Origin: Phoronis australis
Taxonomy: Eukaryota > Animalia > Phoronida
Direction: 5' to 3'
Assembly: GCA_002633005.1 (NCBI GenBank)
Contig: NMRA01000162.1
Coordinates: 300,440 to 364,439, forward strand
Length of the DNA stretch: 64,000 nucleotides
Numbering within the stretch: the stretch's first letter is position 1; the number at the start of each line of letters is the position of its first letter. Under the pieces are notes generated by a model that saw only the letters and a program-made list of their open reading frames with translations, was not told where the DNA came from and searched no databases. Positions 1,812 to 63,875 of the stretch are shown piece by piece. A program made the position numbers and the translations under genes.

Positions 1812-1918
1812 GTATCATTTGAGGGACGTCATAGTGGGCAAGATCTACTTCCTGCTAGTGAGAATCAAGATCAAACACATGGAGGTGCAGATCATAAAAA
1901 GGGAAAGCACAGGCTCAG
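1812..1918 (+). CDS. VPS26: VPS26 alternative exon b (107 nt, mutually exclusive with 1127-1233)
   Basis: gtgtag acceptor, gtagtt donor; YHLRDVIVGKIYFLLVRIKIKHMEVQIIKRESTGS; same length and phases as exon a. Confidence 0.93.
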
Positions 1919-19242: not shown

Positions 19243-19355
19243 CCATTTTACTCTCCTCGGCAGTTTGCAAGATGAGAACCTCGAAGTATGGAAACTTCTC
19301 AGACATGGCTTTTCCGTACACCCAGACACCTATGTCCCCAGCTTCATCAGAGTAT
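19243..19355 (-). CDS. SPRYD3: SPRYD3-like exon (113 nt)
   Basis: ttttag acceptor, gtatga donor; YSDEAGDIGVWVYGKAMSEKFPYFEVLILQTAEESKM. Confidence 0.88.
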
Positions 19356-20262
19356 CTAAAATTACAAAAATTTAAAGCCGTAACCAATGAAAACCATTTA
19401 TGCCAACATAAAACTTCTTTAATGTTGAATCCAGTTAGGCCAGCAATTATCTGTAGATTGTGTAAAAAAGAATTTTTGTTCACAGACCGTGAACAATTGT
19501 TGCAAATTAACGGAGTCTAAAATTAAGAAAATAAAGTTTTCATGACCTTGAGTTACAAAACCATGATTGTGGTGAACTCTGTCTTCTGACAAGTTTCCCA
19601 GTGACTCGAGAGACTGACAGGAAGTTTTATGATAAGTTTGCAGCAAATAGTCGACATTCATCTTACAGCAGCAACTAAAACTATAATGTTGAAATGTTTA
19701 CTGCAGAATAAGTATATCAACATTCAATAATTTTAGCACCAAAATTGACAAGAACATTGCTGACACAGCATTTTGTACAGTACAGTACAAGACAATTGCT
19801 AATTGCAATTATCACAATGACGGCTAATTGTATTAACAGCAACAAAGTCAGGTAATAGATATTAGGGGGCAAAATTCTAATTACAGAATGGCTAAGAGCC
19901 ACCTTAATAAATTCCTGCTAATTTATTTTCATTCTTGGTTGTGAGGGAAGGCTACTCTGACGTGAGAGAATTCTGGGTCATTTTGTCTGACTACTTTTGG
20001 CTTGTACTGTAGCAAAGGATTGTGACAGTACACCATGGGTAGCAGACTAACAATTATGGTACTTATTCTGTATTAAATGTGAGGACCTAAACAAATAACA
20101 CAATAGAGGCTATACTAAGCACAAGGTATTTCTCAAGCAAATCTACTCCAACTGACTTAACACGCTTATTTATCTGTTGTTTAAAACTATGACACAGATA
20201 TTAGGGAACACTATTCCCTGTGAGCCCAGCATATGTGTATGTTCACACAGCAGATAAACCAA

Positions 20263-20270
20263 TATATAAA
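20263..20270 (+). promoter_or_regulatory. TATA box of the nested pacifastin-like gene
   Basis: TATATAAA about 60 nt upstream of the ATG at 20326. Confidence 0.55.
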
Positions 20271-20325
20271 TAATGCCATTGCTATTAACACTGATGCATT
20301 ATAATTTGGCAAACACCATAAAGAA

Positions 20326-20482
20326 ATGCATCACCTAAAAGGTTCAACAATCGCTAAAGCAATGATTTTGCTAATGGCAACCTTGACATTGATTGCTACG
20401 GTGACAGCCTATACTGAAATCCCATGTGATTCGCCAGGAAAGACGTTCTTTGATGGATGTAATCATTGCAGGTGTTCGACAG
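20326..20482 (+). CDS. Nested secreted pacifastin-like protease inhibitor, exon 1 (signal peptide plus N-half of the pacifastin domain)
   Basis: MHHLKGSTIAKAMILLMATLTLIATVTA-YTEIPCDSPGKTFFDGCNHCRCST; hydrophobic signal ending VTA; cag|gtaaca donor, phase 1. Confidence 0.85.
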
Positions 20483-21034
20483 GTAACACATTCTCTTAAC
20501 TTGCTTTCGCACTATAGACTTTTACGTTGGACTAGTTTGCAATCGGAATGTATTTTAGATCTGATTATTCAGCGTGATAACCAACCGTCACAAACAGTCA
20601 CCTTTTCACATGATCAGACTAACTTTAAAGCTTCAAGGACTAAAACCTGAGATGTCGCTACTTTGCTGTGATTTGAAACACTGACTCACTCCAGATGCTG
20701 ACCACAACCTCAGCTTAATTAGCTCTGACAACCATGCAGTTACCACTAATTCTTATTATTAAATCTCTTGCTTTCAGACTTAAAAGCTGAATAATAAACA
20801 GCTGATATGACATACATGGACAAAAGAACTCCGAAGTGTACAAATTTTAGTACTGTCCTAAATATAGGCCGACCTAAATCACCTTTTCTATTAGGTCTAA
20901 AATTCTTGTGGCCACGGCTCCAAATCCATAGTGCGAAAATTCCTTTAGATGATCAAATTGCTTACATGATGGCCAAGCACAGTCTTTTGTCTGGTATGAC
21001 AACAGCTAGGCAGGCCAATTATCTAGCAGGCTTA

Positions 21035-21359
21035 CAGACCACGTCTGAACATAGTCAAACCCAGAGCAAATTGATACGTTCGGAAAGAATAGATTGTCGT
21101 AATTTCGGTTGTAGCTGGGCAATTTTGGCGATTCAAAAACTAAACATGATCAGCATTTGACGAGGAATTCAGAAATGCTATTGGTTTAGTATTCAAATAA
21201 CCTAACTTTTACATTTAACAACACAGCCCAGACAGGCAAGATACAATCTTATTGGCGCAATTACTGAACAAAAGAGAGCTGTCGTGTAAGATATTGGCTA
21301 CACGGGTCATCTTCCCAACTTTGTTGGGTTATAGAATCGAACAAGTTGGGAGCAACGGG
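21035..21359. repeat. Interspersed repeat with terminal hairpin (inverted copy at 48571-48944)
   Basis: The reverse complement aligns by eye over ~330 bp with 48571-48944; contains the stem cccaactt(t)gtt...aacaagttggg. Confidence 0.75.
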
Positions 21360-21515
21360 AAAATGCCGTAATGTAATTAACAGAGTACAATATGAACTTG
21401 GTGATATTCTGATAATGGTGTGTGATTAAAGGTCATCAGTCACTGTGGTCAAAGGTCATACTGATTCGTCTGGGTGCAAATCTTGCCTATGTCTAATTTT
21501 CTACTTCTACAACAG

Positions 21516-21656
21516 AGGGCATTGTCAGAGGCTGTACCAAGAAGGCTTGTCCAAACTTGACACCATGCGTTGCCCACAAGAGAGGAGACCAGTGGAAGAC
21601 AGAGGATGGTAAGAGCTGTGTGTGCTCTCCATCCGGATACGTCATGTGCCAGACAG
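21516..21656 (+). CDS. Nested pacifastin-like gene, exon 2
   Basis: ctaat branch point, pyrimidine tract, caacag acceptor, gttagt donor; (E)GIVRGCTKKACPNLTPCVAHKRGDQWKTEDGKSCVCSPSGYVMCQT completes the 6-Cys pacifastin motif in frame. Confidence 0.85.
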
Positions 21657-23790
21657 GTTAGTATGAAATGAATACAAAACGTCAAGGGGAAACATAAGTC
21701 AAGCCAGTGGGCCCCTCCTGAAATAGCACAGCACCACTTTCAGTTTAAGGTATTTACCCACAATGCAACACATGAAAATGTACAAAGCCAAATTATCTCA
21801 TTATCTTCACCAATAAGCAATTCAGATTGCAATGCAGTGAATTATAAGTTGCAATGCTGACATCAAGAATTTGGCAAAAAGGGGAACCAGTTGGATTTGT
21901 TTAACTACGTAGTTCATCAACTTAGGGGTGTTTGACGATTTGAAAAGTAGGTCAGTCACGCAATGTAGTTTTCTGTCTTCACTAAAGAGGAGACTTTGAC
22001 TGAGGACGAGCCTTGTGAAAGAAACTCAAAATGAAATGTCATTGTTAAGGGATTGAATTGGCATGATAATCACCCTAAACATAATTTCAGTCAGTTTCTA
22101 TAATATTCTACAAAGGTCTATTTTAGGCTATTCACGTTATGCACAGTTGTTCGGATATGGCTCTGCACACATGGTTGGTCATGTACACGATGTCAATGGT
22201 ACAGGAAACATTTTAAGTAATGAAATTCATAGGGTTATTTTTGTAAGGTTGTTCTCATGGTTCCTTAGTTGTACCAACTTTATAAAAGGGTGTGCTTCAT
22301 CATATGGACTCCCTAAAAGAGTGATTTAGAACATTGTGATTGACAAGTCAAGTTTTAGTTTTTAAGTTTTCAATAAAAATACCTTGTCAATGCTTATCAT
22401 TTTTAAGTTATAATTCACAGCTGCCACCAATTTTTTTGAAAAATTATGGGTATTCACAGCTTGCAGAAGCCTTTGAAAAAATTAGAAAAAGAAACATCAA
22501 TTTTTTTAGCAATTAATTATTTTGGTCCAAAATTGGTGAGAATTAAATGAGGCCTGGAACGCAAAAAAAAAACTAAATGGCATAATTCAAAGTGGTTTTC
22601 TGCCACTGTAACAGAAATCAGTGTGTTCAACAAATGTTTTTACATTTTTCCTCACAGTGATTTTGAATTTCTGTTGATGTCAAAGCACTAATCTTTTAGT
22701 TTCAAATTTCAAAAAAAAAACCATTTGTCAGCTGCTTGTCACTTCATTGATTTTTTGGCCACAAAGAAAAGCACGTCTCATTACTTGGTATGGCAAGACA
22801 TAGACGTGGCACATTTCCCTTGTATGGAGAATGTGACCTAACTTGTCTTTGACATTTAATGTAAGCAAAACAATGGCGACTTCACTGAAGCAGCAGACCA
22901 ATTACGAGGAAATTGATGTTTAAAATTAGTTACACAGGAACCGTAGAATTCAAATATATTGTAAAATGCACTTGGAATTCTCTTTGGGAAATCTCTTGCT
23001 TCACTGATACTGTGGTGTAGACCTCAGATTCGGAGTATGATCAAACATGTCGTTAATATCGTTATTGTCAGTCAGCTGTTTGTCAAACGACAGTTTTTTC
23101 AAAAATCCTGAATTTTGTATTTTGTGGAATTACCCTTACAGAGGAAAGTGAATATCTCTTGAACATACATTGGGTGATGGTACTTTCTTCAGGATTTGTT
23201 TGAAAATTATTGATGAACTTTGGCGTTCCATGCCTCTTCAAATTATCCAAATTTTTCACCCCGTTAAAAATAGTGGAGTATCCTCATCATTTTAGCTTTC
23301 TAAATCACTGTAAACGTTTGGTTTAATGCCCGTGGCAGTTAAATTGACAAACACAAAAATTCAGGGTGGGAGGTTAATAAGACATAGGCGCTTAAATGTG
23401 AAATTTCAAGAAATCGAGGGTGGGCTGAACTGAACCTGGGCGCTTGTTACGACAGACAACCACCTTGCCATGGTTAATCGTACGTCATGATCTGAGTCCC
23501 CACAAGTACTCGGAATGCTTAGCACTTTTCAAAGAGCTTTATCGTCACATCGCCAAATGATGATAAAATTGTCATAATAGTGGACGATCCCAACAAAAGT
23601 TTTGTTGCCCTCAGATTAGTCACTCACTAAAAATATTACAAAACTACTGTGTAATAGCCCCGTGTAGCTTTGTTAAAGCTGTAGTGCGCAGACGACCAGC
23701 GGCGGGCATGCAGCACTCCACTTGGATTGCAACTATTCTCAGACAGTGCAAAAGTGCATGTGTGCAAGCTCAGATGAACTCCTGGCTCCC

Positions 23791-23920
23791 GTTCAGTAAC
23801 GCTAGGACCTCGCTAAAAAGCAAGACTTCGCGAGATATTGCCGTGTATTTTAAATAAGAACACGTGACTTTGATTAGATTTTAGCTAGGTCCTAGCGTAG
23901 GTCCTAGCGTTTACTGAACA
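23791..23920. mobile_element. Small MITE / foldback
   Basis: Inverted termini gttcagtaacgctaggacct ... aggtcctagcgtttactgaac. Confidence 0.6.
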
Positions 23921-23982
23921 CACGCCTGCTGTTATTCCTAAAGTTACTTAAAACCTAAGGCACAATTCTAATCTATTTTCAG

Positions 23983-23996
23983 ATGAAGTACACTGA
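23983..23996 (+). CDS. Nested pacifastin-like gene, probable last exon (DEVH-stop)
   Basis: ctaat branch point and attttcag acceptor, phase 1, TGA at 23994-23996, AATAAA at 24063-24068. Confidence 0.6.
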
Positions 23997-25110
23997 AGAT
24001 ATACCAGAAATACATGGATTTGAATTGAGCAATTCAATAATACTGGGAAATGTTTTAACTTGAATAAATATCTTTTGACCAGAGAACTAATTCAATAAGT
24101 TAGCCAGTATTCAGTTCTTCTGGTGTGCGGTCTAAAGATATACCCTGGCGTTTCCAACAAGTATGCTTCGATGCAAGAGAAGCAAATGGTTTTAAATTCC
24201 CGTTACCATTCTGGACCCCGGGACCCTGACCAGTTCCCAACCAACAAACACCAACATCGCGATATAAATTCTCAGGTCAGCAAGAATTTGTGGTGATAAT
24301 AATTAAAATTCCATGAGACAAATATTATCATTCCATTCTGCTCAGTGTCTGAAACCCAGCGTCCATTCCGTAAGTTGGGGTAGGTTACTGGGGAGTGGCT
24401 ACGTAACAGCAGTTTGTTTACGTTAACAGCTTCGCGTTTGATTTACTGCAGTGATGTGTCATCTGGCTGTCTATGAGTGGAATGTGCCTGAGCTTGTTGC
24501 ATTTTTCTCATTCAATTTTGAAACTTAATTATGAATTGTCTTATGTCGACCACAACGGTATGTTTTTGGTCAAAATTGACTCACATTTGCCAAAGATATG
24601 CCTACATATCCATAAATAGTTCCATTAAAAAACAACACTGTCTGTGACCTGGCATACAGATGGTGTCATCATCCTAAGTCGAGTTACCAGTTGTGTAAAC
24701 AGACTGGACACTAGTATCCTAATAAAACTGCCCCTGTGAAATGAGTTCAGACCCTGAGCGAAATGTCAGTATATGTTTCACTCTAAAAATCCATCACTGC
24801 CCATCTCTCTACTCCCATAAATCAGAATCAGGACAAAATACATTTATCACATTGTACCCCTACATGTCTTTTATTACTTTGCAAAACTTGAGCAAGTCCA
24901 GCAAGAAGTTCTGAAGATATCAGGCCGTGCTCTTATCGTCGTGGAATGAGTTTGGATTTTTCAGTCTATCTCATATGTATCCTGTTGTGCATGAACTTAT
25001 AGAAGAAAAGTCACTTTTGTAGCAAAACAGGAAATTCTTGGATGCATGCAGTCTTGCACCGTATCATTGTGCTCATTCCAAAGCTTCACATACAGGCCCG
25101 CTTAGATTTC

Positions 25111-25186
25111 TGTCCTGGCCAGAGTAGGTCAAACCCGGGACTTTATTCTGCAATCTACTAGCTCAAGTCCACTAAGCCATCAGGAC
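25111..25186 (-). pseudogene. Degenerate tRNA-like sequence (tRNA pseudogene or SINE head)
   Basis: Minus strand: gtcctg...caggac acceptor-like stem, A-box-like tggcttagtgg, B-box-like ggtttgacc, central ttgcaga; the anticodon arm does not pair. Confidence 0.35.
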
Positions 25187-25538
25187 CATGTAGTTGAACA
25201 TAGACATCTAATGACTCTGCAGTGTACATGCTCTATACACTGTAATGCAGAGTTTGTGATGATTATATTTGAAAATATCCGACAACATGAACTTGAAGTC
25301 CTTCAAAAATCAAGTAGTAATTGCATGATTTTTGTGCAACCGTCTGCTTACACATATAGTGTGGTAATTGTCGCTTGCCCGAATTTTGCGAACCTGAGTT
25401 TTTCTTCACCAATTGGCATCAAACTGGTTCTCAACATATGAGCATGTTATATCTGACTGTATTGCCAAAGAGTCACAGTTATAGTCCATTTAAGGCCCCA
25501 ATTTCTTCAGGAATAACTTGTCAACTGCTGACACTTAC

Positions 25539-25642
25539 AACAAATCATTGCCCTTCATTTTTATGCCACGGGATCGCACATCTTTTGGGGCAGCCACCTT
25601 CTCTTTGTCACCAAGTATACGCCGGATGATACGAATCGGGGG
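25539..25642 (-). CDS. SPRYD3: SPRYD3-like exon (104 nt), the most 5' exon confidently placed
   Basis: gtttttcgttttag acceptor, gtaagt donor; PPIRIIRRILGDKEKVAAPKDVRSRGIKMKGNDL, phase 2 out joins 19355 in frame; the ten exons sum to 1293 nt (431 codons). Confidence 0.75.
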
Positions 25643-25779
25643 CTAAAACGAAAAACTAAATTGCTTAAAATAAATAAGCAAAGCACCGACAATGAAGATG
25701 ACAGCAAGATCCAAGAAGAAACAGCATAATCTTCCCATGCAATTGTCAGTATATTACGGAAAGAGGCGCAGTGTGGCTT

Positions 25780-26395: not shown

Positions 26396-26680
26396 CTTTA
26401 AGTTATATTCTCTGTACCTAAGCTTGTATTTTAGGTTTCTGTATTTTCATTTTGTAGATTTTTTAAAAATTCTCAGATGATAGCACTTGTGCTGTTTCAA
26501 AGTTAAACATCACCGACTTTAAAATATAGATTATTACTACTAGAGGTTTGATTAGTGTGTGTCTGCCTCCTGTTCACAAGGTTGTAGAATTGACAAATCT
26601 TACTGGACCATGCATTGGTAGCCCCTATGAGTCATTCATCTCCAGCTCTCCAATTTTTCCGGCTCAGTCTTAATAATTAA

Positions 26681-29600
26681 GAGTGACTCCATATAAAAAC
26701 CAACAGGTAGAGTCTATATCCAAAATCACCGATTTTTTTGAAACCTAGCACATGAGTTTGGTTTGTTGAGATGTAGAAAAACGTCACTTTTTAAGAATTT
26801 TCATTCATTATTTTTCTTTTTATGACCTGTACCTCCATTTTGCAACAAAATTGGGTGTCGAAGTAGGCATGTTTGAATGCATTTTACTAGCATGTGTGGT
26901 AAGGTCAAAACAAATGAATAATACGAACTGAAAGCGCAGTGGCTGAACAATTTAATGGCATAACTTTCAAAATCAATTTTTAAATTTGTACATTTTGAAA
27001 TTTTGAGGCAAAACCGGCTATTTTTCAGGTTTTCACTGAAGCCATTTGCGGCCAAATTTGGCACTCTGTAGCAGCCATAACGCACCTTTCCTGAAATTGA
27101 CTTTATAATTTGTTTAGTCATTCCTAACCTGTTCATAATCTAAAATAAAAAATCTTGCCTCTAATGTAGTTTTTGCTTACGAAGCATTACACGAGCTGCA
27201 CTTCGTCCTTTTGCATGTTCTCAGTTGCCTCTGCTGCCAATAGGGGGCTCTTGCAACATATAAGTAGCTTGCGAAACACGACATAAAAACCTTGTATTTT
27301 GGAGAAAAGGCAGACAGCATGATTATTAATTACCATTCTCTGAAAACGGCATTGATGATTGTTGCTTATTACAAAAAATATGTAACGAAAATCAACTGGC
27401 ATGCGTGGTTCTAAATGATAGATGGCGCTGCTTTTGTTTACGTAGAGACTGAAGACGCATCTAGAATAAGAGCAGTAACACAAGGTCACGAGGACCTTGC
27501 TATAATTCAAGACTTCGGGACTGATATTGCCCTGCATTTTAAATGAGAACACGTGGTTTTGAATAAATTTTAGAGAGGTTCTAGTGTTACTGAACTCACC
27601 CCTGTCTTGTTTTCTATCTGCCTTGTTCGTGCCACAGGCAAAGGAAGGCACCCAAGGTGAATATGGCCCCCTAGTGATCAGTGCAAAATCCTTCAACTTG
27701 TCAATAGTCATTGTAACTTTGGGTTCATATTGTAATGTCCCTGCTGGTTGCTACAAATTTTAGTCGCCACCAGTTGCCAGAAATCTGGTGTTCCCCCCAC
27801 ACACCGGGCACCCTAACGCTGAATTTCTGTCAGTGTGATCATCAGTGGTATAAAAAGGTACACATTCACAGTCAATAGAAAATAATTCACGAGAGACAAT
27901 TTTATTAATGACTCATTCATGACAGACATGAAGTAAACAGAAGTAACAGTCTCGACTTCATATATCACACATCTTTGACTGGTATGCTACAAAACTAGGA
28001 CTATATGTTGAGCTCATTTACCACTTCATTCAGTAAATCTGACGATATAACAGCATCTTCAGCAGAAATGCATCGTGACGAACATTGCTGCAGACAACCT
28101 CGAAAAAATCCACCAATCTGCGATTCACTTAATATCACAGGTAAACACTTTACCTGTGGGTTCTCGTAATGTTTTCTCCATTTTGGCACTTCCGAGGGTG
28201 AACGTTTTTACCTGACTTATCTCCTTCATCGAATATGTTCGTCAGAAAGTTCTTAACCTTTGCTGAAAATCTTGTTGACCTTTTACCTTTTTTCAATGCC
28301 TAACCTATTGCTTCAGTATTCGTCTCATCCAAATAGTACTCTGAGGCTGCCTCAAATGACGCTCCGGTTCTTGCATCTGAAAGCATTTCTGACCACTGTC
28401 GTGCGATGTGGTCATACGTGGTTTCCCTCTGTAAATGTTCAGTGTGGTTACCCACATCCAAATGCTGACCTAGTTCTGCGTCTGTAGCAAAAAATTTAGA
28501 GTAACCTTGCTGGGTACAAGGGAACTTTTGTTGAGGCTCTTCACAAGATACAATGCCAACCTTAACTCTTGGTGTTTAGAATCCGCCATGTCTAGAGATG
28601 TTAGTGTATTTTAGAGAAATAGGTTTCCCATTTTCTCAGTATTTGTAAGAACTTACCGCCACCTACAAGGAATGATTTCCACACGCGAATTCCTTGGGTG
28701 GAATAGTGGAAATTTGGGAATGTGCTTATACCAGGAACTGAGTATTTTGGAAAAGAAAGACTTTGTTACATTGACTGAACATGCATACACATAACATCCC
28801 TTCACACGGCCACTGGAAAGTAATGCTTCTTTCAAATCCAAAAAGTTTATGATATTGTTACCTTCGGCTACCATGAAAAGTACTTTGCATGTTGTTTGAG
28901 TGGAGCGATCTTGCAATCACAGAGATCCTTTCCATTCTGACTTTCACTAAAGTCATATCTCGAAACAGAAATGCCGGTAGAATTTGACAAGGCTGTTACG
29001 TTCAGGAGGAGAGGAGCAGAGTGGTAACATCCAGCATTACCTGACTCTTCCATGACTGGTCCTGTTCAGTCAGAAATTCACCGACTCTGGGTTAAGTACG
29101 AGTGCGTACTCTGGCACAGGCCTTGCTTTGTGAGGTACGTAGTTTCCTGTATCTCAAATGTTCAGAGGTGTCTTTGACATAATTGTCACTAAAGCACAAA
29201 GCTTTTGTGATCGGATTTTTTGCAGAATAAACTCTAAAGGAACATGAAGGCCCATCGACATCGTCCGCCATTTTGTCTTTTTAAAATGCACTTGCTTCTC
29301 TCAAGACCAGTCATTACAAATATCAATTCTTACTCGTTTAATCTTAAAGGCATTTATTTCCATTTGAAATTTCTACAGAGTGTTTAAATTAACCTGATAA
29401 TGTAAAAGAAATGAAAGAATAAAAAAAAGGGTTACACGTACATTTTTTATATATCCTCAAGCTTAAACCTCAACTGATTCCCTCAGTGGGCAAAGGTCAT
29501 CGGGTTCAGGTTTGATACTAGCCACGTAATAAACCCGGAAAACATCTTGTTTTCATTTGAAAGAGTTTAGACTTGGTTTCTATAAAGCAGACTTCTTGCC

Positions 29601-30190
29601 TAAAAGTTTGTTTGCAGGTCTGTAAACTCCGCTCGATCGTCATTTCCAAACTATGAAAATAGACAGTTTTGCAAGACAATTTTCACTAAGGTGCAAAGTT
29701 GAGGCAAGATTTTTTATTGCTCAGTCATCAAGACTAACTCTTTAACTGTATGTTCAAAACGTCACATAAAGCTACAAGGTGTTTTATGGCAGTAAAAGGT
29801 CACAAAAATGGCCACTAAAATTAGCCCCAAAAAAGTGGTCTGTCGATTATCTCCCCTGTCTAGCACAAAACTGTCAGATTTTAATAAATGGCACAGAATT
29901 ATGTACAGTATACGTTGGTTATTTCAGCCACCAAAAATATAGCTTTTGATCTATTTTTTATGTTACTCATTTTTGTTGCTGAAAACATGCGATTTTTGAG
30001 ACGGCTAATATGCCCAATTGTGCCAATTTGTGTTATGCTCCAGCGGCGAAATTAGGGGTCATTGAGTGCACAAATTTTGGCATTGGGTTTATGTTAGGAT
30101 ATCTACCCATGTACAAAAAATGAAGTTGTTTTAAATTTTGACGTATAGACTGATTTTTGAAAATCTACTGGTTTTTATATGGACTGTCTC
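26681..30190 (-). mobile_element. Sola3-like DNA transposon with decayed transposase
   Basis: TTAA on both sides (26677-80, 30191-94), GAG...CTC termini sharing tccatataaaaacca; broken minus-strand ORF ~28000-29270 with NAGCYHS...RYDFSESQNGKDLCD and G*ALKK..TRFSAKVKNFL. The superfamily is inferred from termini and motif. Confidence 0.75.
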
Positions 30191-30581: not shown

Positions 30582-31449
30582 TCACAATAAAATGGCTGCC
30601 GAAGGCAGTGCACATTTGAAATAACTCGGCACAAATTAAAGAAAACTTCCGAATCGATGAATGCGGTATATCTGTGAGAGTTAAATCGAATCCTATTCAG
30701 ATCATAACTTTGAAGTGGAATAATTCGGTGAGTACAACAGCAAGTTGGTTTTATGCTTAGGCGGACGACCATTGGGTTCCCGAGAATAAGTATGTCCACA
30801 CATGAAAAATGGCTTCACGTTTTCGTAGAATGGGCTCCAGTTCTAGTGAGTATTATATAGCCAGTGCTCGCCTGATGCACAGGCGTCCTCAGCTTCTGAT
30901 CGTCCCCAATACACTATTTTGGGGACGCTCAGAAGCTGATCGGTCTGCGGTCTGATGAAACGGTATGAGAATTAAGCGCATCTTTTCGTATTTGACCCTA
31001 CCGCCGGTTCCCCTAGTAAAGGCTTTTAAAGACGCTCACTGTCGGTTCCTAGCCTATGCAGAGGAAGTCCAGAAAATGTTCAACGTTTTTCCACCAGAAG
31101 AACTAAGTATACAAACCACGCCACCAACAAGATCGGCACAAGGATCGTCATCTCCCAGCCCCACTTCCATGACACGAAGACGCTCCATGTGGCGGCCCAG
31201 TTCTTGAGCATGCTGGGCAGCTGCCTCTTCCATAAGTTTCACAATTTGAGATATTTCCGTCTCCTGATCCGACATATTACTTTATTGCGCAGTTGTACTG
31301 CACATTAAGCTATTGCAAGGTGAAATTGAAAGCGACGTAGGAAAATTTCCGGAAAACAACAACCCGAACAAGGGGAAATTCCCAAACAAGTTGCCATCTT
31401 GACGCAGATCTCCTCCTATCGGCCAGGAATGAGACCATTGGCTATATAG

Positions 31450-34400
31450 GCCCTATTTATTACATTCAGGTGATGCTGTGCCGTATCGCGTATGCGTAAA
31501 CTTCAAGTTGGAATTGAATTTTCATTTGGACAATCAGGCGATTTTTTTCAGTGTAAAGAATTTGGCTGTACTTCGCCGGAATAATAAATATTGACATCGA
31601 TGTAAGCATTGTGCTTGCAAACTTTATAACTATATCATTACCCAGTCCTACGAACTTCATCTTGGGCATGGTAGTCGTAACGGGGATAACTATACTGGCT
31701 TTTTGCTGATTTTCCAGACATGCAGTGGGCAAGTGAGAATCCTTTGCTTGATCTGTTCCGTCATACCTGGCTCTCTCAATGGTTTTTGCACTCTTTGATG
31801 TGCTTGATGTATCAAGACAGGTGTCCTCTCTTGATATGCAGCATAACTATTCTGCATCCTCGGATTAGAACCCCATTTAGCCATGCCAAATCATGTCTGT
31901 AATTCCAGTAAGCCAGTAGTCTGGCATTTGGTTCTTATGTTCGGGCCATTCTTTTTTAACAACAATGCTATCATAACTGGGTCTTATTTGAAGCCGGGTT
32001 TCAGCTCAAATCTTTTGAATGTCGATCCAGTCGTAGTGTTCACCTCAAGAATTCCAATGGTCATAACGCTTAATCGTCGTGAGAGACCGTCCGGAGTTGG
32101 TATATGGTGCAACTCGGGACGGTCTGGGGTCTACAGAAAACCACAGTTCAACTGTGAGTCTACACCAATGTGATAAACGAGAGTAGTTCTACTTGCTGCG
32201 TTAGCTGCTGGTATGCTTATCTCTTTTATGACACACAATGTGTGACTGGCAAAGCGTTTTCAAAATGATGTGGATAAATCAGTGGAGTGTGAGACCCCTG
32301 AGGTCCCTGTCAAGTCTTCACTGCAATTTTACGTTATGTTTAATTGTGATATTTAGTGGTAAAACTGGCCCTTGTTTGGGTCTAAGAGGAACACATCTTG
32401 ACAAAAATCTGGGTTATGCATCTCACTTCCTTTCTTAAACAACTTCCATCTCCGTAGCCTTGCAACATTTGGACTACTAAAGACGTTGCAGCAGTGGGGG
32501 TATGATGTGAATGTTTTTCTTGAAGACCGTGCTTTTAATGGCTAGTGGTCTGTGTGGACTGTAAACTTTTGTCCGTAGACATCCTGCTTGTAATGCAAGA
32601 CTGCCCGACATAACGCCGAGCAGCTCTCTCTCGATATTTGAGTACCTCGTTTCCGCATCGGCCAGGCTTCTTGACGCAAAATTAATTGGCCCTCCCTCTC
32701 TTTTGGATCAAATACCGGAGGGTCTCCGCCTTGAGAACGCATTCCTTCAAGCTATTCAGCATCTGTGTGTGCTGATCGGTCCAAGCAAAATCTTCAGTGT
32801 CTTTTTCAACAGTCGTCTTAATTCATAAGTTTTAGTTGACAAGTTAGAGATAAATTTGACAAGTTACGTAAAACAGCCCAGTAAGGACTGAAATTCAAGC
32901 TTGTTGTCAGGGGGTGCTTTTCTCCCAATAGCATCCAACTTCTTAGGATCTGGCTAAACGCTTTCTGGTATAAGTACATGGCCAAAACAACGAATCTCTG
33001 CCGGAAGTATCTTTGCTTTCTTTGGATTCAATCGGAATCCCTACTCTCTACAGTGCTGAATGACTTGGTTCAGGGCAATATCATGGTCAAGTCTCACCTC
33101 TGCTGCAATCAAGATATCATCTGCGATGCGGTAAACATTTTCCAAGTCTCTGAAAGTGTCGTCAATGGCGCGTTGGAAGACATCTTGTGAGCTATTAAGC
33201 CCAAAGGGCAATCGCTGACAGTGCTGTATCTGCCAAAGGGACTGTTAAATGTAAGCAAGGGAACACGTACTCTGTGGATGCATATCAATATTCACGACTC
33301 ATCTAGGGCCGAGAAATACCTACACTTATTTATCTGCGTTATTACTTCATCTTAAGTAGGAGTGTAATGGTGGGGTCTTTTCAAAGCCCTGTTTAACGGT
33401 TTAGGATCAAGACACACGCTTAGCTGGCTGTTCGGTTTTGGGGTACACACCAGGCTGGCATTACCCAGGGCGTGGCTTCCTGCTGTTTCCTGTCAACTCC
33501 AAGCTCTTCCATACGGTTGAGTTCAACCAGAAGTTGTTTTTTGACAGCTGGTGGTACTCTTCTTGGAGGGCATATCTCTGGTGGGACAGTATCAGCTATT
33601 TTATACTTATATTGCTTCAGCTTTCATCATCTTTGACGCTTTTCGAATTGACTGTCAAAGTCTCCGTGACAATCTTCATACATGTATAAGTACCGGGCTC
33701 ATCACAAAGTATTTTCACTATGTTCATTGCTTTGCAGAACCTCAACGAGAATAGATTGTTTCTAAAATCTGAGACAAAAAGGACACATTACATTATGTCC
33801 AGCGACGTTTTTTGTGAAAAACACGGTCAACCCAAAACTTGCCATGATTGGTGAAACTTTTACCACCATAACTAGTCAGTTTGACAGCAGACTTTTGGAG
33901 TTTCTTGTTTTCATCGTCCCCGTACAGCTTCTTATAAATGTGGCAATATTCAGGAAATTAACTTGGGCCCCAATATCAATTTTGCTCTTCAACCTACATG
34001 TAACTTGTCTCCCTGATGTCTCAATCCTAACAACAGCAAATTGGGTATCTGGCCTAAGGTCATCATCAAAATGGATTTCACCTGTCGTGGTCTCCACGGT
34101 CTCAACTGATGCACTGTCACATTTGTCGTCAAACAAATTTTCCTCTCCAGAAGATTGGTTATTGACTCCAGCTTCGTGCAGTTGTTTCACTTGCTTTCTT
34201 CTCTGTTCCGCAGTTTCCCGCTTCGCAGGTTTAGTGTTGGGCTGACAGCACCGCTCTAAATAGTTTATCTGTTTGTAGCGGTTGCTTTTCTTTCCAAATG
34301 CTGGACAACGCTTTGGTGGGTGCATGTTTCCACATTTCGTGCAATTAATATGCGAGTTAGTCGCAGTTCATCAGTAGTACTTGTGGTATCAGCACACTGC

Positions 34401-35100
34401 ATGATATCCTGCCTCACTTGATCAACCTTTCGCATATGTGTCGTTGTGCTGCCTCCGCTTCTCTTAGTTGCTGTGTCCAACACCTGAGTGCATGTCGTAC
34501 TTTTTGGGAGGGCATAAGCGTTTTCCAAAATCTTGACATCTTTAAATCCATAGTTAAGCGCTTCAGTCTCCATGATGCGCGAAATGTCATTTGGATGTCC
34601 ACGTTGCTGTAGCAACTTCCTTATTCGATCATGAAATTAAAATCAGTCTCATCGGCTTGCTGTTTGAAAAACTTTAATTTCATCCATGAGGCATTCCACG
34701 ATTCTTCTGTGCCAACCTTCTTGGCACAAATGCCATCGAAAAACTTTCACAGGGGGGTTTATCTTCTCGTCATCATTACCATCAATTGAAAGGGGGTGAT
34801 TTGCATATTGCAGACATGCCTCTGGACCCATCCACGTTAACACCTTAACGACTTGGTATTTTTCTTCAAGTTCTTCGTAACAATTCAGATTTTTCTGTGT
34901 CAACGTTTAAACCAAAAGAATTCATCATACAGTTTTTTATTGGAAAATTCAAGTTGTTTCGGCATTTCTACACCGTGTAAACGAGCCTAATTCCTGTGGC
35001 TTCTATTTCGTCTTTCGAGGTCATTTTGTATGTTTAAGCTTACCGGTAATTTCACGATTGTCTTTAAGTTAAAAAAACTTAGTCGAGGTCACCATGCAAA
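31450..35100 (-). mobile_element. Decayed Ty3/Gypsy LTR retrotransposon internal region
   Basis: Minus-strand order, heavily frameshifted: PBS-like TGGTGAC (~35096), gag knuckle (HPPKRCPAFGK), protease (KIDIGAQVN), RT (LDPKPLNRALKRPH, FNSPFGRY, LPFGL, ADDIL), RNase H (KFTVHTDH), integrase Zn finger (YWNYRHDL, IHQAHQ, PGMTEQIKQ). LTRs not identified. Confidence 0.88.
32062..32338. repeat. Hairpin-rich repeat inserted in the Gypsy element (homologue of 49848-50106)
   Basis: Shares cataacgc...cgttatg termini, the agaccg..gagttg/caactcgg..cggtct stem and gtgagacccctgaggtccc with the other copy. Confidence 0.75.
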
Positions 35101-39034: not shown

Positions 39035-40072
39035 AGGCGAAGGCAACCTTTTTCCATGTCATTTTGAGCTAAAATAAGGTTGTTTGGTTATCCTAGACAT
39101 ATTTTTCACTTAATTACAGCTTTTCGTAATTTTATTAATTATTCGTCCGCTTTTCCGGAAGTGACGTTTTAGGAGGCAAGCGCTTCCCGCCAATTTCTTT
39201 TCACATAGTCTGACTGGGAGAGCTGCCGAGTCAGTCATTGTTCTACCTCGGTTGTGTTAAGTTCCNNNNNNNNNNNNNNNNNNNNNNNNNNNNNNNNNNN
39301 NNNNNNNNNNNNNNNNNNNNNNNNNNNNNNNNNNNNNNNNNNNNNNNNNNNNNNNNNNNNNNNNNNNNNNNNNNNNNNNNNNNNNNNNNNNNNNNNNNNN
39401 NNNNNNNNNNNNNNNNNNNNNNNNNNNNNNNNNNNNNNNNNNNNNNNNNNNNNNNNNNNNNNNNNNNNNNNNNNNNNNNNNNNNNNNNNNNNNNNNNNNN
39501 NNNNNNNNNNNNNNNNNNNNNNNNNNNNNNNNNNNNNNNNNNNNNNNNNNNNNNNNNNNNNNNNNNNNNNNNNNNNNNNNNNNNNNNNNNNNNNNNNNNN
39601 NNNNNNNNNGTACTCGGGCTCAAACATGTACCCACCCACTGAATGTCCGTGAAAAAATTCCTCGTCACCACTGCTGTGAACAAGGTCTCCGTCACTCACA
39701 CTACTGTCACTGTGATACGGGTCACCGACTCCAGCCATTTTCAGCTTACAACACACTAAACAATCCCTAAATCCAACGCAGTTGAGTTCTCTACTAACCT
39801 ATCTTGCCGCAGAATACTCGCCGATGGAAAGTGGTGGCGACAATTGGTGAAAAATAGCACAAAACAAAAGTAGAATAGAACAGATTCGCACAGTAATCTC
39901 AATGCAAAACCAAGTGGCGGGAAGCGCTTGCCTCCTAAAACGTCACTTCCGGAAAAGCGGACGAGTAATTAATAAAATTACGAAAAGCTGTAATTAAGTG
40001 AAAAATATGTCTACGATAACCAACCAACCTTATTTTAGCTCAAAATGACATGGAAAAAGGTTGCCTTCGCCT
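39035..40072. mobile_element. Kolobok-type DNA transposon, copy 1 (interior in assembly gap 39266-39609)
   Basis: TTAA TSDs at 39031-34 and 40073-76, AGG...CCT ends, ~158-bp near-perfect TIRs; nearly identical to 54595-56285. Confidence 0.9.
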
Positions 40073-54530: not shown

Positions 54531-54859
54531 GATTGAGTGACTCGCCTATCCCCAGTCATTTCGATCACCATGTTTACCTGGACCGCTGTGTTAAAGCCGA
54601 AGGCAACCTTTTTCCATATCATTTTGAGCTAAAACAAGGTTGGTTGGTTATCTTAGACATATTTTCCACTTAATTACAGCTTTTTGTAATTTTATTAATG
54701 ACTCGTCCGCTACTCCGGAAGTGACGTTTTAGGAGGCAAGCATTTCGCGCCAATTTCTTTTCATATAGTCTGACTGTGAGAGCTGCCGAGTCAGTCATTG
54801 TTCTACCTCGGTTGTGTTAAGTTCCGTCGACGTTTGCTTTCATTTACTAGTCAGTCAAC

Positions 54860-55668
54860 ATGCCACACTGTTGCTGCGTACCAGGATGTACTAACTATCG
54901 GCTCACGCGCGCTTTGGGAGAACCTTTGCATCGCTTTCCGATGGATGACACACTTCGCCGTACTTGGCTCGTTCGTGTGAAGAACGCAGCGTTACCCGTC
55001 CACGCAACGTACAAAGCAGTGAAGAATTACAGTGTGTGGCAAGCACTTTCTGCCGTCCGATTACGAAAGGGATTTGTACGCTGAACTGATGAAGGTCCCT
55101 GCGAAACAACGTCTGAAGAAGGATGCCATTCCGTCTGTGTTGATTCCCGGCAGTGCACCGTCGCCACCCCCGAGAAGTGCGTTTTTGAAGCGAGAAGCCT
55201 CGCGAGCTGTGGCCAGTGCAGTGACTGGAGCCATTGGAGGCACTCCATCTACTGTCACCCGTGCCTCCGAACGTACCCCGGAGCGTGCAATTCCTGGAAC
55301 CAGTAGTGATTCGCCCTGTGCTGTTTTCTCCACCCCAGAGCCTCTAAGCAGCCCTGCAGCGATATTGAGTAGTGGGAGTGATAACAGGCTCAGTTCGACA
55401 CCCAGTGAAGAGGACAGTTCGTCGTCCAGTGAACATATCGGTGAGCCAAACTTTGATAAGTTTATTCTGGACTTGTCTAAAGTGTTGGAGCTATTTAGAA
55501 GGTGCCAGGTGTGTGGCGAGGGAGTCACACGACACAATGTAAGCAGTTTGGGTGCTCAGTTCACCATCCAGTGGGAGTGTGTCGCGGGAAACTATGGCAA
55601 GTAGGACAGTTGTTCCTGTGTCCGCAGTATGCCGGAGGTCCACTTAACCATGTCCAGTAGTAGCTTGG
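54860..55668 (+). pseudogene. THAP-domain transposase N-terminus (frameshifted, catalytic part deleted)
   Basis: MPHCCCVPGC..LHRFP..RRTW..VCGKHF..RLKKDAIPS is a C2CH THAP domain; frameshift in the gtgtgtg run at ~55032; later CQVC..C motif and a stop at 55602-04. Confidence 0.85.
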
Positions 55669-55951
55669 CCTCGTCGAACTCTGAACAGCACAAGCATTCC
55701 ATTGAGGTAGGCATAACAACGCACACAGTGCATTTGCACCAAGATGTGCCACCACGTCTGTCCTCAGTAGCCGCCTCGTTTCTCTCAACAGCTGCCTGTG
55801 CCTGTGCGTACTCTGCCTCGTTATACTCGGGCTCAAACATGTACCCACTCACTGAATGTCCGTGAAAAAATTCCTCGTCACCACTGCTGTGAACAAGGTC
55901 TCCGTCACTCACACTACTGTCACTGTGATACGGGTCACCGACTCCAGCCAT
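55668..55951 (-). pseudogene. Kolobok accessory ORF N-terminus, P2X7 cytoplasmic-ballast-like Cys cluster (truncated)
   Basis: MAGVGD...YMFEPEY...RRGGTSWCKCTVCVVMPTSMECLCCSE matches the WCxCxxC...ExxCC pattern; the same start is present in copy 1 (39610-39738). Confidence 0.8.
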
Positions 55952-56478
55952 TTTCAGCTTACAACACACTAAACAATCCCTAAGTCCAACGTAGTTGAGT
56001 TCTCTACTAACCTATCTTGCCGTAGAATACTCGCCGATGGAAAGTGGTGGCGACAATTGTTGAAAAACAGCACAAAACAAAAGTAGAACAGAACAGATTC
56101 GCACGGTAAAGTCAACGCAAAACCAAGTGGCGGGAAACGCTTGCCTCCTAAAACGTCACTTCCGGAGTAGCGGACGAGTAATTTATAAAATTACGAAATG
56201 CTGTAATTAAGTGGAAAATATGTCTAGGATTACCAACCAGCCTTATTTTAGCTCAAAATGACATGGAAAAAGGTTGCCTTTGCCGTTAATGTTGTTTTTG
56301 GAAGTCCATCAACCAGTGGAAACAACGCTGCTGCCGCACTCAGTTCCTCGCTGTATAAATGCCGCTCATGATCCTGATAAACCCACCGGCTCACTGACTT
56401 ACTCGTGCTGGACCCACAGACATGGTGCACGGACTCCATAACGATGCACTGTACAGTTTTTGGCAGCCTATGAGTTAT

Positions 56479-58388
56479 CGTTGCTGTAGTGATAAAAGTA
56501 GAGGTAAGTAGGCGCCCAAAGCACAGCGTATCGCCCTGAATTGAACTCGAAAAACCTGACTCACGAACATGTACATGTAGACCTATTTTTGCTTCACGAG
56601 TGGGTCTTTACTTAAAGTCTACAGTAGCGGATATAGGATGTCACAGAAAGGGGGCCCAAACTCTCATTATTTGAAGGCAGAAGCCCGCGTGTATTCCAAT
56701 CGGTCTCTGAAGAGGGGCCCCAAACACAATTATTGCAAAGGAGACTAGGCACGTAACGCTCAGAGACGATATGCTGTCGGTATTTTTAGTCGCCCGTAGG
56801 GTGTGTTCTTCGGGCCCCCTTCATCCGCCTTTGGTACAACACCATAACTGTTACTTTATCTTGAAATATTAATCTAAAAATTTATAATTCGGTGAACATA
56901 AGTTACTCTGTATGCTTCAAAGCCTAATTTCACAAAAACGATGTTACACAAGCACTGACGTTTATTAATGAGTTTAACACCATGTACAATGCGCAAACGT
57001 TCCTGCGCTTACATAATGCACAAACTCCAAGTAGCCGGGCTTTCTTGCAAGCAACTAGTTTTAAAGTTAGTAAGATACGAGGTACTAGTGACCTGTCCCA
57101 AGATAGAGTGTTTAGTTACAGAATGCTCCATAAATTTTCTTGTCTGCAGTCTTGTTCTTCTCCAAGTTACATGATCTGGACTGAGAACTATCAGCAGCTC
57201 TGTTTTGTCGAATCCAAGTTTCGGCATTAGGTTGGGTCGAACATGGAAAGCGGGGGACCATTGACTTTGCCAAACAGCAAGCTGAAGGTGATTTTTGATA
57301 ATAAACAAGAGCGAGCGTCTGTTACAATCCGATTCATTTCGCTGAATCTTCGCTCACGTTCAGTTGTACTGCAAGGAAGAGTCTTAATGCAGAGGTCCAG
57401 TTGTCGCAAAGCACTTGATAGGTTGTCTACTCTCACCGTCTCCTCCATATAATTGCTACGAACTCACGCATTCCCCTGATTGCCATTGTGGCAACAAACC
57501 CAAACCTCTCGCAAATACCCCTGACTTCGTGCTCGCCATGTCTTATCTCAGATCCCATCGGCCACGTTTTGGGGTCCAAGATACTTAGAAAAGAGCAAAA
57601 TGACTGCACATCGCTGTCAAGTGAATGCCGCTCCAATTTCCCCCCAACATTTTGAATAGCATGTCCAAGACATAATGGTCACGGTTGTTTATGTGAGGGT
57701 TTTCTTAAGTTCCATTGACCCAAACCTCTTTCTCTTGAGCGCATGTCAGTGCAGTGGCGAATGCTTCCGTGTATTATCAACCATAGACTAAGGACACGCA
57801 CCATCCGACGAATGTTTTTTTTGCTTGTAGCATAGTTGTGTTTCTGCATTGTAGATCCACAAGCAGGCTTCACAGCTCTTCTAGCACATTGTGCATCAAC
57901 ACAAGATTCTGAATGGAGGTGGGACTTTCCAAGTATCTCTACCGGCGGCAGTAATCCCAAAAACATGTTCCGATCTCTCGAATCAGGGTTTGTCTTCACT
58001 GGCTAACTCGAAATGCTGATGCAGTGCGTTCAATGAAATGGAGCTGTTCTACTTTTGACGACTTGTACCCGAGTTTTGTCAATCATGAGGTCATCGAAGC
58101 ATGCCTAGCGGTCACGCGCGGCGAAATATTCGGCAACAATGCTGTCTTCAGCGTAGCAGCGCACCGATACCGTAAGCTACAGTATGATCGTAAGAAGACC
58201 ACGTCTCACTATGCCGTCACTTAAATTACGGAGCGTAAGGGCTACGTTAAAATGTAAAAAGGTGGTTGGCTGCGCCTACGTGCGCCCACGTGCCACTATA
58301 CTGTAACTTACGGTGCGGAGGCGATACGTTAAATTGCAAAAAGGTGGTTGGCTGCGCCAACGTGCGCTTACGACCCACTACGGCACTG
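56479..58388 (-). mobile_element. hAT DNA transposon, decayed, with a nested MITE (56622-56833)
   Basis: 8-bp TSD TGAGTTAT at 56471-78 and 58389-96; termini cgttgctgtagtg / cactacggcactg; hAT dimerization motif IKTLPCSTTERERRFSEMNRIVTDARSCL; ~80-bp subterminal duplication at 58243-58388. Confidence 0.85.
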
Positions 58389-58765
58389 TGAGTTATCGCC
58401 GCCGACTACAGACTTGACGACAAATACGTCATATTTCCGTTTAGCTCTTATTGACAACTGAAAACCAGCGTCATATTGGTCCGAATGTATGCACTATATA
58501 CTCTAACTCATCGTAGGTGTAGTATTCAGAATTGGATCGTACATGTACGTAGGTCGGCAGGTCATCGCCCGAGGCTGACTTGTAAACAAACCGAAGACTA
58601 TCACAAGAGCGGTGAACCGGCATACATGTATTTTATGTGCGTTGGAGTAAGCATTGTGTATAAGTAAGCATTATGCTCATTGAATTTTATTACGCAGGTG
58701 CAAGGCTCCAGACACCACATCGCTGTCTCTCGGGAACCTAGCCAGGAACTTTAGGAAGCAACGAA

Positions 58766-58955
58766 ATGGAATCTAGCGTGAACAGTATTTACAGCTGGGT
58801 GGTGTGCTTTGCATCTTTCTTTGTCAACATGGTCTTGGACGGGACTCTCTTCTCATTTGGTCTTTTCTACGTCGAATTGCGGGAGTACTTTCAATGCAGC
58901 GAAAGCCAGGCGGCTTTGCCAGGCTCCTTGATGTACGGAATGGCATTCTTAGCAG
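58766..58955 (+). CDS. SLC16/monocarboxylate transporter (MFS), first coding exon (exon starts at 58698)
   Basis: MESSVNSIYSWVVCFASFFVNMVLDGTLFSFGLFYVELREYF..AALPGSLMYGMAFLA; in-frame stop upstream of the ATG; cag|gtaaaa donor. Confidence 0.92.
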
Positions 58956-61900: not shown

Positions 61901-63475
61901 AGCTTGCAGTGGATTGCCTTAAAGCCTTTTTATGACCTTCAGATATTTGCCAATACATATTTGTGTACGTGACAGTAAAATAAGGCGAAGGACAACGTAG
62001 TTATTGAAACCCTGTTGACGGTGAATTGCACTGTTCTTTAATAGCGCAACAAAACCTAAGTTCACATTTTCACATTTCCCTCACACCACAATAACAGTTG
62101 CAAAACATTCAGTGGATGAAAAAAATCACCGATGTGTTCAAGAGTGTCATTTGCCAACATTTTTTTGAAAACAGTATGACTTGGAAACTATGTACTCACA
62201 GGCAAAAACAGTATAATTCTGTTAAAATCCAACGTTTTCTCAACTTCAGACACAACAATGTTTTTAGCTGATTGTGAGGCTATTTCGACTACTCATATTC
62301 CATTACAAAACAAGAAGGTGATCGGTAACACATCTTTTCACACCACTGCCGGTACGTTGATTCATTTTAAGAGCCGGACAAGGGACATGGAAAATGTTTC
62401 GAAAAATCGCATAAAATTTGGGCTAGCAAACTCTGAATACTCCTGGTCGTCACCTGCAGTAGGCCTACAGCAAAACCCGGTGGCGAAATGAATTCTCCCA
62501 CGTGCACTCAAATATTGACTTCCGGACAATCGTTTACATAGGCCTGAACGATGCAAGCTTAAGACCCTCAAGGGTTGTAGTAAATTTTTTACCAATAACG
62601 CTGATTCACAAGTCTTAACAAACACTATGGGCAAATTGCACTTTTAAATTGCTAATAGTATTTCGTCCTCTTGTATTATGGTGGCTGCTTAAGATATAGC
62701 GCCGCATGCGCAGTAATACATGTTACAAAATTCAGGCGATGGGACCACCTGAACCCGTATTCGGACTGACGAGAAACAAACCTGTAATAGTTTTTAAAAC
62801 GCATGCATGACATGTCGAAAGACTCACGTGCAGCTGTAAAGTTAGACAGTGGCCACAGTCTCTGCTGGCTCCGCAATAGAGACTGTGAATCTCCTTAGAC
62901 GCTTCATACGCCGGAAGATTTTCGGGATGTATGGCTCGCACTGACTAAAATATCAATGCTGTGTTGTTATAAACACTTTTTGCGCACAGAGGGACACCTT
63001 AAGAGGCCATCGATGTATTTAATGCCTTCCAACTCGAACGCGTTATCAAACTTTACTTCGAGCACTCCCTCGTTCAGTTCCCAAAATCAGTAACTCACCA
63101 TTTTTAATACTTTCCTCCGTCTGGGGATATGGCGTCATGGCATGGAACATGATGTCTTTTGGATCCAAGGACATTGTAGCAATTGAAACACCCCGTCGCA
63201 AAGCAGTACAAATTTACCGTCATTTTGATACACGAAAGATGTTAAGACGCGGTTTATGCCAGTAGGTTGAAACACCCCGTCCGCATTACATGGAATTCGC
63301 CAGTGGAGCCGAGTGCCAGTTTTCATGGTCACCGGCTGGCGGGTTAGTCAGTTTATATGGCGCTGGTATTTCGAAAGAGTTTTTTATTAGTCATACATCT
63401 AGGCTACAAGTTCTATGTAAGGGCTTTGCGTATTCAATGTATGTTGTGATCTTGGATGTGTCATTATCCTTTCAG

Positions 63476-63619
63476 GGCCGATGGTGAGCGTTGTCGTAAA
63501 TCGTTTTGGCTGTCGCGCAGCTACAACGCTGGGCGGTATTGTCTCCGCCGCCGGACTGATTTGCTCAAGTTTATCCACCCGCATAGAAGTGTTAGTGTTT
63601 TTCTATGGCATCGTTGGAG
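63476..63619 (+). CDS. SLC16/MCT coding exon 2 (144 nt)
   Basis: tttcag acceptor, gtgagt donor; GPMVSVVVNRFGCRAATTLGGIVSAAGLICSS...FFYGIVG with the MCT NRFGCR motif. Confidence 0.94.
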
Positions 63620-63875
63620 GTGAGTGTGTCTATTTCCTTACAGATAACATTTTGTGTTCACCAGTTAGATTCGGAAATATCTGAAAAGGTGTTTTCATTC
63701 AAAAGGCACAACTAAACTTGCAAACCATTCGTTCATAGGTGTCCATGAAACATGAAACCCATTTACAAAAGTGGATCTGCTATGTCTGCAGGCAGTCTTG
63801 TGAGTTTGCTTTCGTGATTGGATTTACGTTTTATCTACCATTAAGTCACAGAAGTGTTATATGGTGCTTCTTCAG

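Follow-up and report, generated by a model that had tools for sequence, protein, structure and literature searches.

A predicted secreted pacifastin-type protease inhibitor is encoded by an antisense gene nested within an intron of a gene with SPRY domains

We analyzed a 64,000-nucleotide (nt) stretch of contig NMRA01000162.1 (assembly GCA_002633005.1), called the window below, and found that an intron of a minus-strand gene with SPRY domains contains a second gene on the plus strand. This nested gene is real, expressed, twice spliced, and polyadenylated and lies antisense in the intron of its host. Its product carries a short-loop pacifastin domain, has a predicted signal for secretion, and probably inhibits trypsin-like serine proteases through a Lys-Lys loop.

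Structure and transcription of the nested gene

The window is 39% G+C animal DNA with introns and assembly gaps. A preliminary description, made from the letters alone, had placed in it a TATA box, an ATG at 20326, three GT-AG exons, an AATAAA, and a 103-amino-acid product, and we found every coordinate to be correct in the sequence. The putative TATA box, TATATAAA, is at positions 20263 to 20270 (plus strand, as are all parts of the nested gene). The coding part of exon 1 (20326 to 20482, 157 nt) starts at the ATG and carries the predicted signal peptide and, as placed by Pfam and PDB matches, the first four pacifastin cysteines (Cys1 to Cys4). Intron 1 (20483 to 21515, 1033 nt, phase 1) interrupts the pacifastin domain after Cys4, and exon 2 (21516 to 21656, 141 nt), matched by Pfam Pacifastin_I, supplies the Cys5-Cys6 loop, a short linker, and a second module. 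After intron 2 (21657 to 23982, 2326 nt, phase 1), which like intron 1 is delimited by reads across its joint, exon 3 (23983 to 24083) holds the last four codons and the stop (coding part 23983 to 23996, 14 nt), the 3′ untranslated region, AATAAA at 24063 to 24068, and a poly(A) site after 24083, 15 bases further on. With GT donors and AG acceptors, the three exons join into 312 nt, an open frame for 103 amino acids plus a stop. A second in-frame ATG at 20362 would result in the same mature protein. None of the open reading frames (ORFs) of at least 80 amino acids in the window covers the gene in frame, in agreement with the earlier remark that it is absent from the ORF track.

We searched RNA from four runs labeled with the same species (X1 to X4), reading about one-fifth of each raw run. 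We found that the joint 20482/21516 was crossed by 129, 125, and 8 reads in X1, X2, and X3 and the joint 21656/23983 by 69, 57, and 8 reads (71, 57, and 8 under a laxer setting). At both joints the first mate was always in the minus orientation and never in the plus orientation. The stranded RNA check that had been proposed for the two junctions thus came out in favor of the gene, with spliced plus-strand reads in X1 to X3 and none from the opposite strand. A single contig from X4 contains all three exons and continues past 24083 with 25 A's at a place that is not A rich in the genome. On the plus strand, RNA depth was zero in the bin from 20026 to 20244, and reads extend to at least 20308, with many ending at 20317. 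Because of these read ends and the bin without plus-strand transcript, the data fit a transcription start just after the TATA box.

An artefact or a chance motif is ruled out by the RNA joints. Chance had already been called unlikely for a motif that forms only across an intron, and this view held: among the 296 AG sites in the host intron downstream of exon 1, a single one, the true acceptor, completes the pacifastin consensus, and a consensus-completing site arose in 2 of 300 shuffled versions of that DNA. Within the 64-kb window, the N-terminal half motif occurs only once.

The host intron (19356 to 25538, minus strand, 6183 nt, GT-AG on that strand) holds the entire nested gene and is delimited by joint reads and by an X4 contig. 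This contig spans the intron and covers the flanking exons of the SPRY-domain, SPRYD3-like host gene, one downstream (19243 to 19355, minus strand) and one upstream (25539 to 25643, minus strand), both with AG and GT borders. We found that the host joint 19355/25539 was crossed by 0, 5, and 15 reads in X1, X2, and X3 and that another host joint, 16525/18311, was crossed by 6, 10, and 23 reads; both joints read CT..AC on the plus strand, and their first mates were in the plus orientation only. Since first-mate orientation is opposite at the joints of the two genes, nested and host genes are transcribed from opposite strands. The proposed antisense nesting is therefore borne out, with a transcript of about 20308 to 24083 inside the spliced intron, the host joint read from the minus strand, and the nested joints read from the plus strand.

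Depth over exon 1 was 93, 100, and 4 in X1, X2, and X3, versus 1.3, 3.2, and 14.5 over the flanking host exon. Nested coding genes are usually expressed oppositely to the host gene (PMC5174743). The nesting is likely incidental, and the different samples in which the two genes peak would explain why it is tolerated.

Interspersed short repeats in the host and nested introns (19968 to 20011, 20972 to 21373, and 23786 to 23926) attracted many loose-ended reads from both strands. The last of these, which resembles an inverted-repeat element, is related to a stretch near 27523 to 27561. Upstream of the host gene, the segment from 26582 to 29751 gave strand-biased RNA (first mate minus) that peaked in X3, at up to 110, and carried many mismatches to the window; its source may be another copy of a transposon or, alternatively, divergent transcription.

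Pacifastin domain, second module, and proposed function

We found that residues 34 to 64 match C-x10-C-N-x-C-x-C-x3-G-x4-C-T-x3-C, with cysteines at 34, 45, 48, 50, 59, and 64 and intercysteine spacings of 10, 2, 1, 8, and 4. This satisfies the published six-cysteine consensus used for comparison, C-x9-12-C-N-x-C-x-C-x2-3-G-x3-6-C-T-x3-C (PMC2689174). In Pfam scans, exons 1 and 2 were scored apart. Exon 1 matched Pacifastin_I (PF05375) at profile positions 2 to 18 (20.9 bits, E value of 3.1e-4; 23.4 bits for the mature part), and exon 2 matched positions 22 to 33 (15.9 bits, E value of 0.011). The two matches are consecutive and do not overlap along the profile. The lack of a pacifastin match, which the preliminary description had named as grounds for giving the claim up, was thus not observed for either exon. 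A PDB search with the mature part of exon 1 at E values up to 10 returned 11 matches, all of them small insect protease inhibitors, the best being locust PMP-C (E value of 5.3e-4). By name, eight are pacifastin, LCMI/PMP, or SGPI proteins; the other three have generic names, and we take them to be of pacifastin type too. The exact consensus match, the Pfam halves in succession, and the PDB inhibitors uphold the assignment to the pacifastin family.

Hydropathy and inspection by eye point to a signal peptide at residues 1 to 28 (20326 to 20409, plus strand), with a basic residue, a hydrophobic core at residues 13 to 23 (11-residue mean, 2.58), and a V-T-A site after which cleavage is likely. The product is therefore predicted to be secreted. 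By the rule Cys5-X-P1-P1′-X-Cys6 (PMC13388995), the predicted P1-P1′ pair is Lys61-Lys62 in C-T-K-K-A-C (21539 to 21544, plus strand), so that the earlier reading of P1 as Lys stands. A Lys or Arg at P1 goes with a trypsin-type target (PMC13388995, PMC2689174), and from the Lys-Lys pair we predict trypsin-like serine proteases as the targets. The loop between Cys1 and Cys2 has 10 residues, Pro included, which places the domain in the short-loop "Conventional" class, defined by 9 to 12 residues between these cysteines, often with Pro (PMC13388995). RNA reads show coding variants at eight sites; three are silent, and the other five make H47R, K74H, and D83G. Among the variant rows listed, we found no change of a cysteine or of P1-P1′ and no exon indel.

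The preliminary description was right about the pacifastin domain and overlooked a further module (21566 to 21649, plus strand), which follows after a five-residue linker and has its four cysteines at residues 70, 87, 89, and 97. On spacing and weak database leads it is VWC/FnI-like. With four cysteines only, it does not fit the six-cysteine pacifastin pattern with C-N-x-C-x-C and C-T-x3-C. Read as a long-loop repeat, its cysteines correspond to Cys1, Cys3, Cys4, and Cys5, with Gly84 and Val102 at the places of Cys2 and Cys6, which form one disulfide pair in pacifastins (PMC2689174). We infer that the module is likely a pacifastin-type repeat of the long-loop kind that lacks the Cys2-Cys6 pair. 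Its match to Pfam VWC (PF00093) was weak (positions 7 to 32 of 57, 11.5 bits against 27.6, E value of 0.39), as were leads to Atlas VWC protein clusters at 0.81, below the 0.9 level, and to beta-microseminoprotein (E value of about 1). All these leads point to one fold group: the VWC and beta-microseminoprotein families belong to the same clan as pacifastin. A VWC domain has about ten cysteines. We found that the frame stops six residues past Cys97 and that no further exon has RNA coverage. A search for additional cysteine-rich exons that could complete a VWC domain gave three chance-looking stretches, none of them joined in the listed RNA joints. Exon 2, which encodes a fragment spanning two modules, was modeled by itself from its single sequence; the model had four short strands with a predicted local distance difference test score of 70.

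In the mechanism that we propose, modeled on the family, removal of the 28-residue signal peptide would leave a mature protein of 75 residues and about 8.2 kDa. Disulfides Cys1-Cys4, Cys2-Cys6, and Cys3-Cys5 would hold the reactive loop, and Lys61 would bind a trypsin-like enzyme in the standard canonical mode, occupying its S1 pocket. More tentatively, the second module would pair the equivalents of Cys1-Cys4 and Cys3-Cys5 and, having no reactive loop, might act as a spacer or binding tag.

Several points count against this interpretation. Neither exon alone attains the Pacifastin_I gathering score of 27.9, and the summed halves are no formal score. No animal orthologue of the nested gene was found in the databases searched. 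The exon 2 model gave no significant fold match (Foldseek, none at E values up to 0.001; VIA, best Z of 2.7). The allele tally covers 40 of 55 variant rows, and the opposite expression of nested and host genes is drawn from three runs of one study with tissues unspecified.

Among the alternatives, the one that survives best, though we consider it unlikely, is that the protein, secreted and of pacifastin fold, serves in binding or in a matrix and is inactive as an inhibitor, its two modules jointly forming a VWC/FnI-type adhesion or growth-factor-binding unit. The lean of the second module toward VWC would suit such a protein. Matrix modules often accompany non-arthropod pacifastins (PMC13388995), and the limpet shell matrix contains a VWC/pacifastin protein (PMC4094399). 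However, the first domain has all the consensus residues (among them the Asn that follows Cys2, the Thr that follows Cys5, and a basic residue at P1), these residues are constant among the listed alleles, and the VWC scores are under every threshold. We think it improbable that the product, like locust pacifastin precursors, is cleaved at a basic site into a single inhibitor peptide, with the tail as a disposable remnant. There is a Lys-Arg pair at residues 74 and 75, and insects regularly use dibasic processing (PMC2689174), but the pair sits within the second module and outside the five-residue linker, and one allele has His at residue 74. We give next to no weight to a non-coding transcript or decaying duplicate whose role, if any, would be to regulate the host gene in antisense: the opposite depth of the two genes in three runs and the incomplete second module would agree with it, but the frame is open across three exons, the full consensus is assembled by splicing (a match arose in 2 of 300 shuffles), the alleles combine silent changes with intact cysteines, and nested coding genes are as a rule expressed oppositely to their hosts, as cited above.

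We favor the inhibitor, and the searches for its relatives were as follows. No candidate for exon 2 was found among proteins of 82 to 2000 amino acids. In a phmmer search of 1.84 billion representative sequences with exon 2, there were four matches at E values up to 0.001, all long repetitive proteins; these matches (bacterial Ig repeats, a fish mucin-like protein, and a plant repeat protein) were rejected because their scores were summed over repeats.

A bacterial look-alike came from a search with the first shared motif only. Two identical loci, L001 and L002 (2548 to 3108, plus strand), hold a bacterial-looking ORF for a secreted protein or lipoprotein with a C-terminal pacifastin-like domain (Pfam, 23.9 bits; E value of 3.5e-5), lying between two genes that by eye resemble those for nitronate monooxygenase and dihydroorotase. 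The domain shares FFDGCNHCR and CTKKAC with the nested-gene protein, has no C-x-C pair, and has one later cysteine. Horizontal transfer from bacteria is not supported, given the missing C-x-C pair and the earlier publication of pacifastin-like domains from bacteria.

Host gene, lineage, and neighboring features

The host gene had been named SPRYD3. SPRY domains were recovered by Pfam (E value of 0.019 on one exon) and by Atlas (0.92, with 21 of 30 matches within the SPRY set), and by eye its exons carry SPRY-type motifs in two rounds; the name SPRYD3 was not confirmed. We assume a two-domain layout for SPRYD3, which fits the host gene. For one host SPRY exon, no relative was found among 12 candidates.

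The lineage of the animal was judged from VPS26 exons in the window. Queries with the SPRY exon and the VPS26 exon found no proteins of the window's own species among the databases searched, and the best VPS26 match among 120 listed had 95% identity. The genome may thus lack annotation in these databases, and the idea of a gene missed by annotation was not confirmed. We built a tree from 38 of the 58 species-named matches among these 120 (the 20 omitted were all arthropods, and unnamed rows were omitted). Both forms in the window cluster with 10 rows (nine from molluscs and one from a nemertean; 97/94) and lie outside the clade of those rows themselves. The last VPS26 exon encodes Phe in the window and in all 10 mollusc and nemertean rows and Trp in 27 of the 28 others, the remaining one being without the stretch. 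Because the tree places the window with molluscs and a nemertean, the animal is likely not an arthropod, and we regard a lophotrochozoan as likely. A point against this placement is that the tree rows include no annelid, brachiopod, echinoderm, hemichordate, or amphioxus.

The two VPS26 forms are look-alike tandem exons of equal length (1127 to 1233 and 1812 to 1918, plus strand) with AG/GT borders and 82 of 117 bases alike, flanks included. They are likely mutually exclusive. Mollusc and nemertean VPS26 proteins carry either one version or the other, and the duplication may be old in lophotrochozoans.

Elsewhere in the window, a broken long terminal repeat-type retrotransposon with many stops lies upstream of the host gene at about 31000 to 35000 (minus strand), with reverse transcriptase (E value of 4e-7) and RNase H pieces. 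At 54851 to 56011, a THAP domain (plus strand, E value of 3e-6) stands head to tail with a P2RX7_C-like piece (minus strand, E value of 7.5e-5), likely a DNA transposon, and a second such copy near 39200 to 39970 runs into an assembly gap. A remnant of a hAT transposase dimerization domain is at 57230 to 57463 (minus strand, E value of 1.6e-4). Exons at 58742 to 63681 (plus strand) resemble by eye a monocarboxylate-type transporter of the major facilitator superfamily; two pieces tested had no Pfam match.

Relation to known pacifastins and significance

The closest known counterparts are the locust inhibitors PMP-C/LCMI-II (PDB 1gl1 and 1pmc), SGPI-1, and SGPI-2 (PF05375, MEROPS I19), which have the same six-cysteine consensus as the nested-gene protein and share with it the Cys1-Cys2 spacing of 10, PG-x-TF before Cys2, and a signal peptide. 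Unlike them, the nested-gene protein continues into a four-cysteine module. Insects have one exon per domain and cleave dibasic linkers (PMC2689174), whereas the nested gene splits its domain four cysteines to two (4+2) and has no dibasic site in the linker. Trichoplax TAPP-1 also spreads its domains over two exons, and its long-loop spacing resembles the second module; it has 42 domains with a 3+3 split, in contrast to one full domain with a 4+2 split (PMC2689174).

A 2009 survey reported no pacifastins in molluscs, annelids, or deuterostomes (PMC2689174). Rodriguez-Aguilar et al. (2026) list 394 pacifastin proteins, of which 109 are molluscan, with others from annelids, flatworms, cnidarians, rotifers, fungi, and bacteria (PMC13388995). 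The pacifastin-like sea cucumber gene Ajpacifastin, likewise non-arthropod but from outside the lophotrochozoans to which the animal studied here likely belongs, is reported to act in immunity and to inhibit proteases (Ma et al. 2022, cited in PMC13673367). The suggestion that the family is poorly documented outside arthropods therefore did not hold. In molluscan pacifastins, K-K is among the dominant P1-P1′ pairs, as in the nested-gene protein (PMC13388995). Most non-arthropod pacifastins are of the long-loop "ancestral" type (13 to 20 residues), in contrast to the short loop found here; short-loop domains outside arthropods are a minority, spread over six phyla or kingdoms, and their structural cluster has one annelid and one flatworm (PMC13388995). 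All 155 short-loop proteins in that paper scored as pacifastin only, whereas the nested-gene protein bears a four-cysteine tail, which may be a pacifastin repeat that has degenerated or else a module of VWC/FnI-like type; the hmmscan test used there would likely miss this weak tail as well.

In Drosophila, nested intronic genes are likewise short genes in long introns with expression unlike that of the host, and nested structures account for nearly 10% of the genes of the fly (PMC5174743, PMC3814207). A literature search, with most subscription journals outside its coverage, found no paper describing this gene, a 4+2 split of the domain, or a tail of this sort behind a short-loop domain.

We conclude that the nested gene is an ordinary new pacifastin; the family, its occurrence outside arthropods, and nesting were all known before, and this gene leaves the known range of the family and the knowledge of nested genes unchanged. 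It provides an RNA-verified model of the type that gene finders can miss, with short exons, nesting, and the opposite strand, and a predicted trypsin inhibitor of 75 residues that is easily made and assayed. It is also a data point against an arthropod-only view of short-loop soluble pacifastins, and its 4+2 intron position is unlike both published patterns, the whole-exon domains of insects and the 3+3 split of Trichoplax. A further-reaching possibility, which we put forward tentatively, is that a lophotrochozoan outside the sampled molluscs has a freely secreted, arthropod-style short-loop pacifastin joined to a pacifastin-derived repeat that has lost one disulfide pair and the reactive loop, with the 4+2 split. 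If this is true, the soluble short-loop inhibitor would be no arthropod specialization, and a step between pacifastin and FnI/VWC modules would have been caught within one protein.

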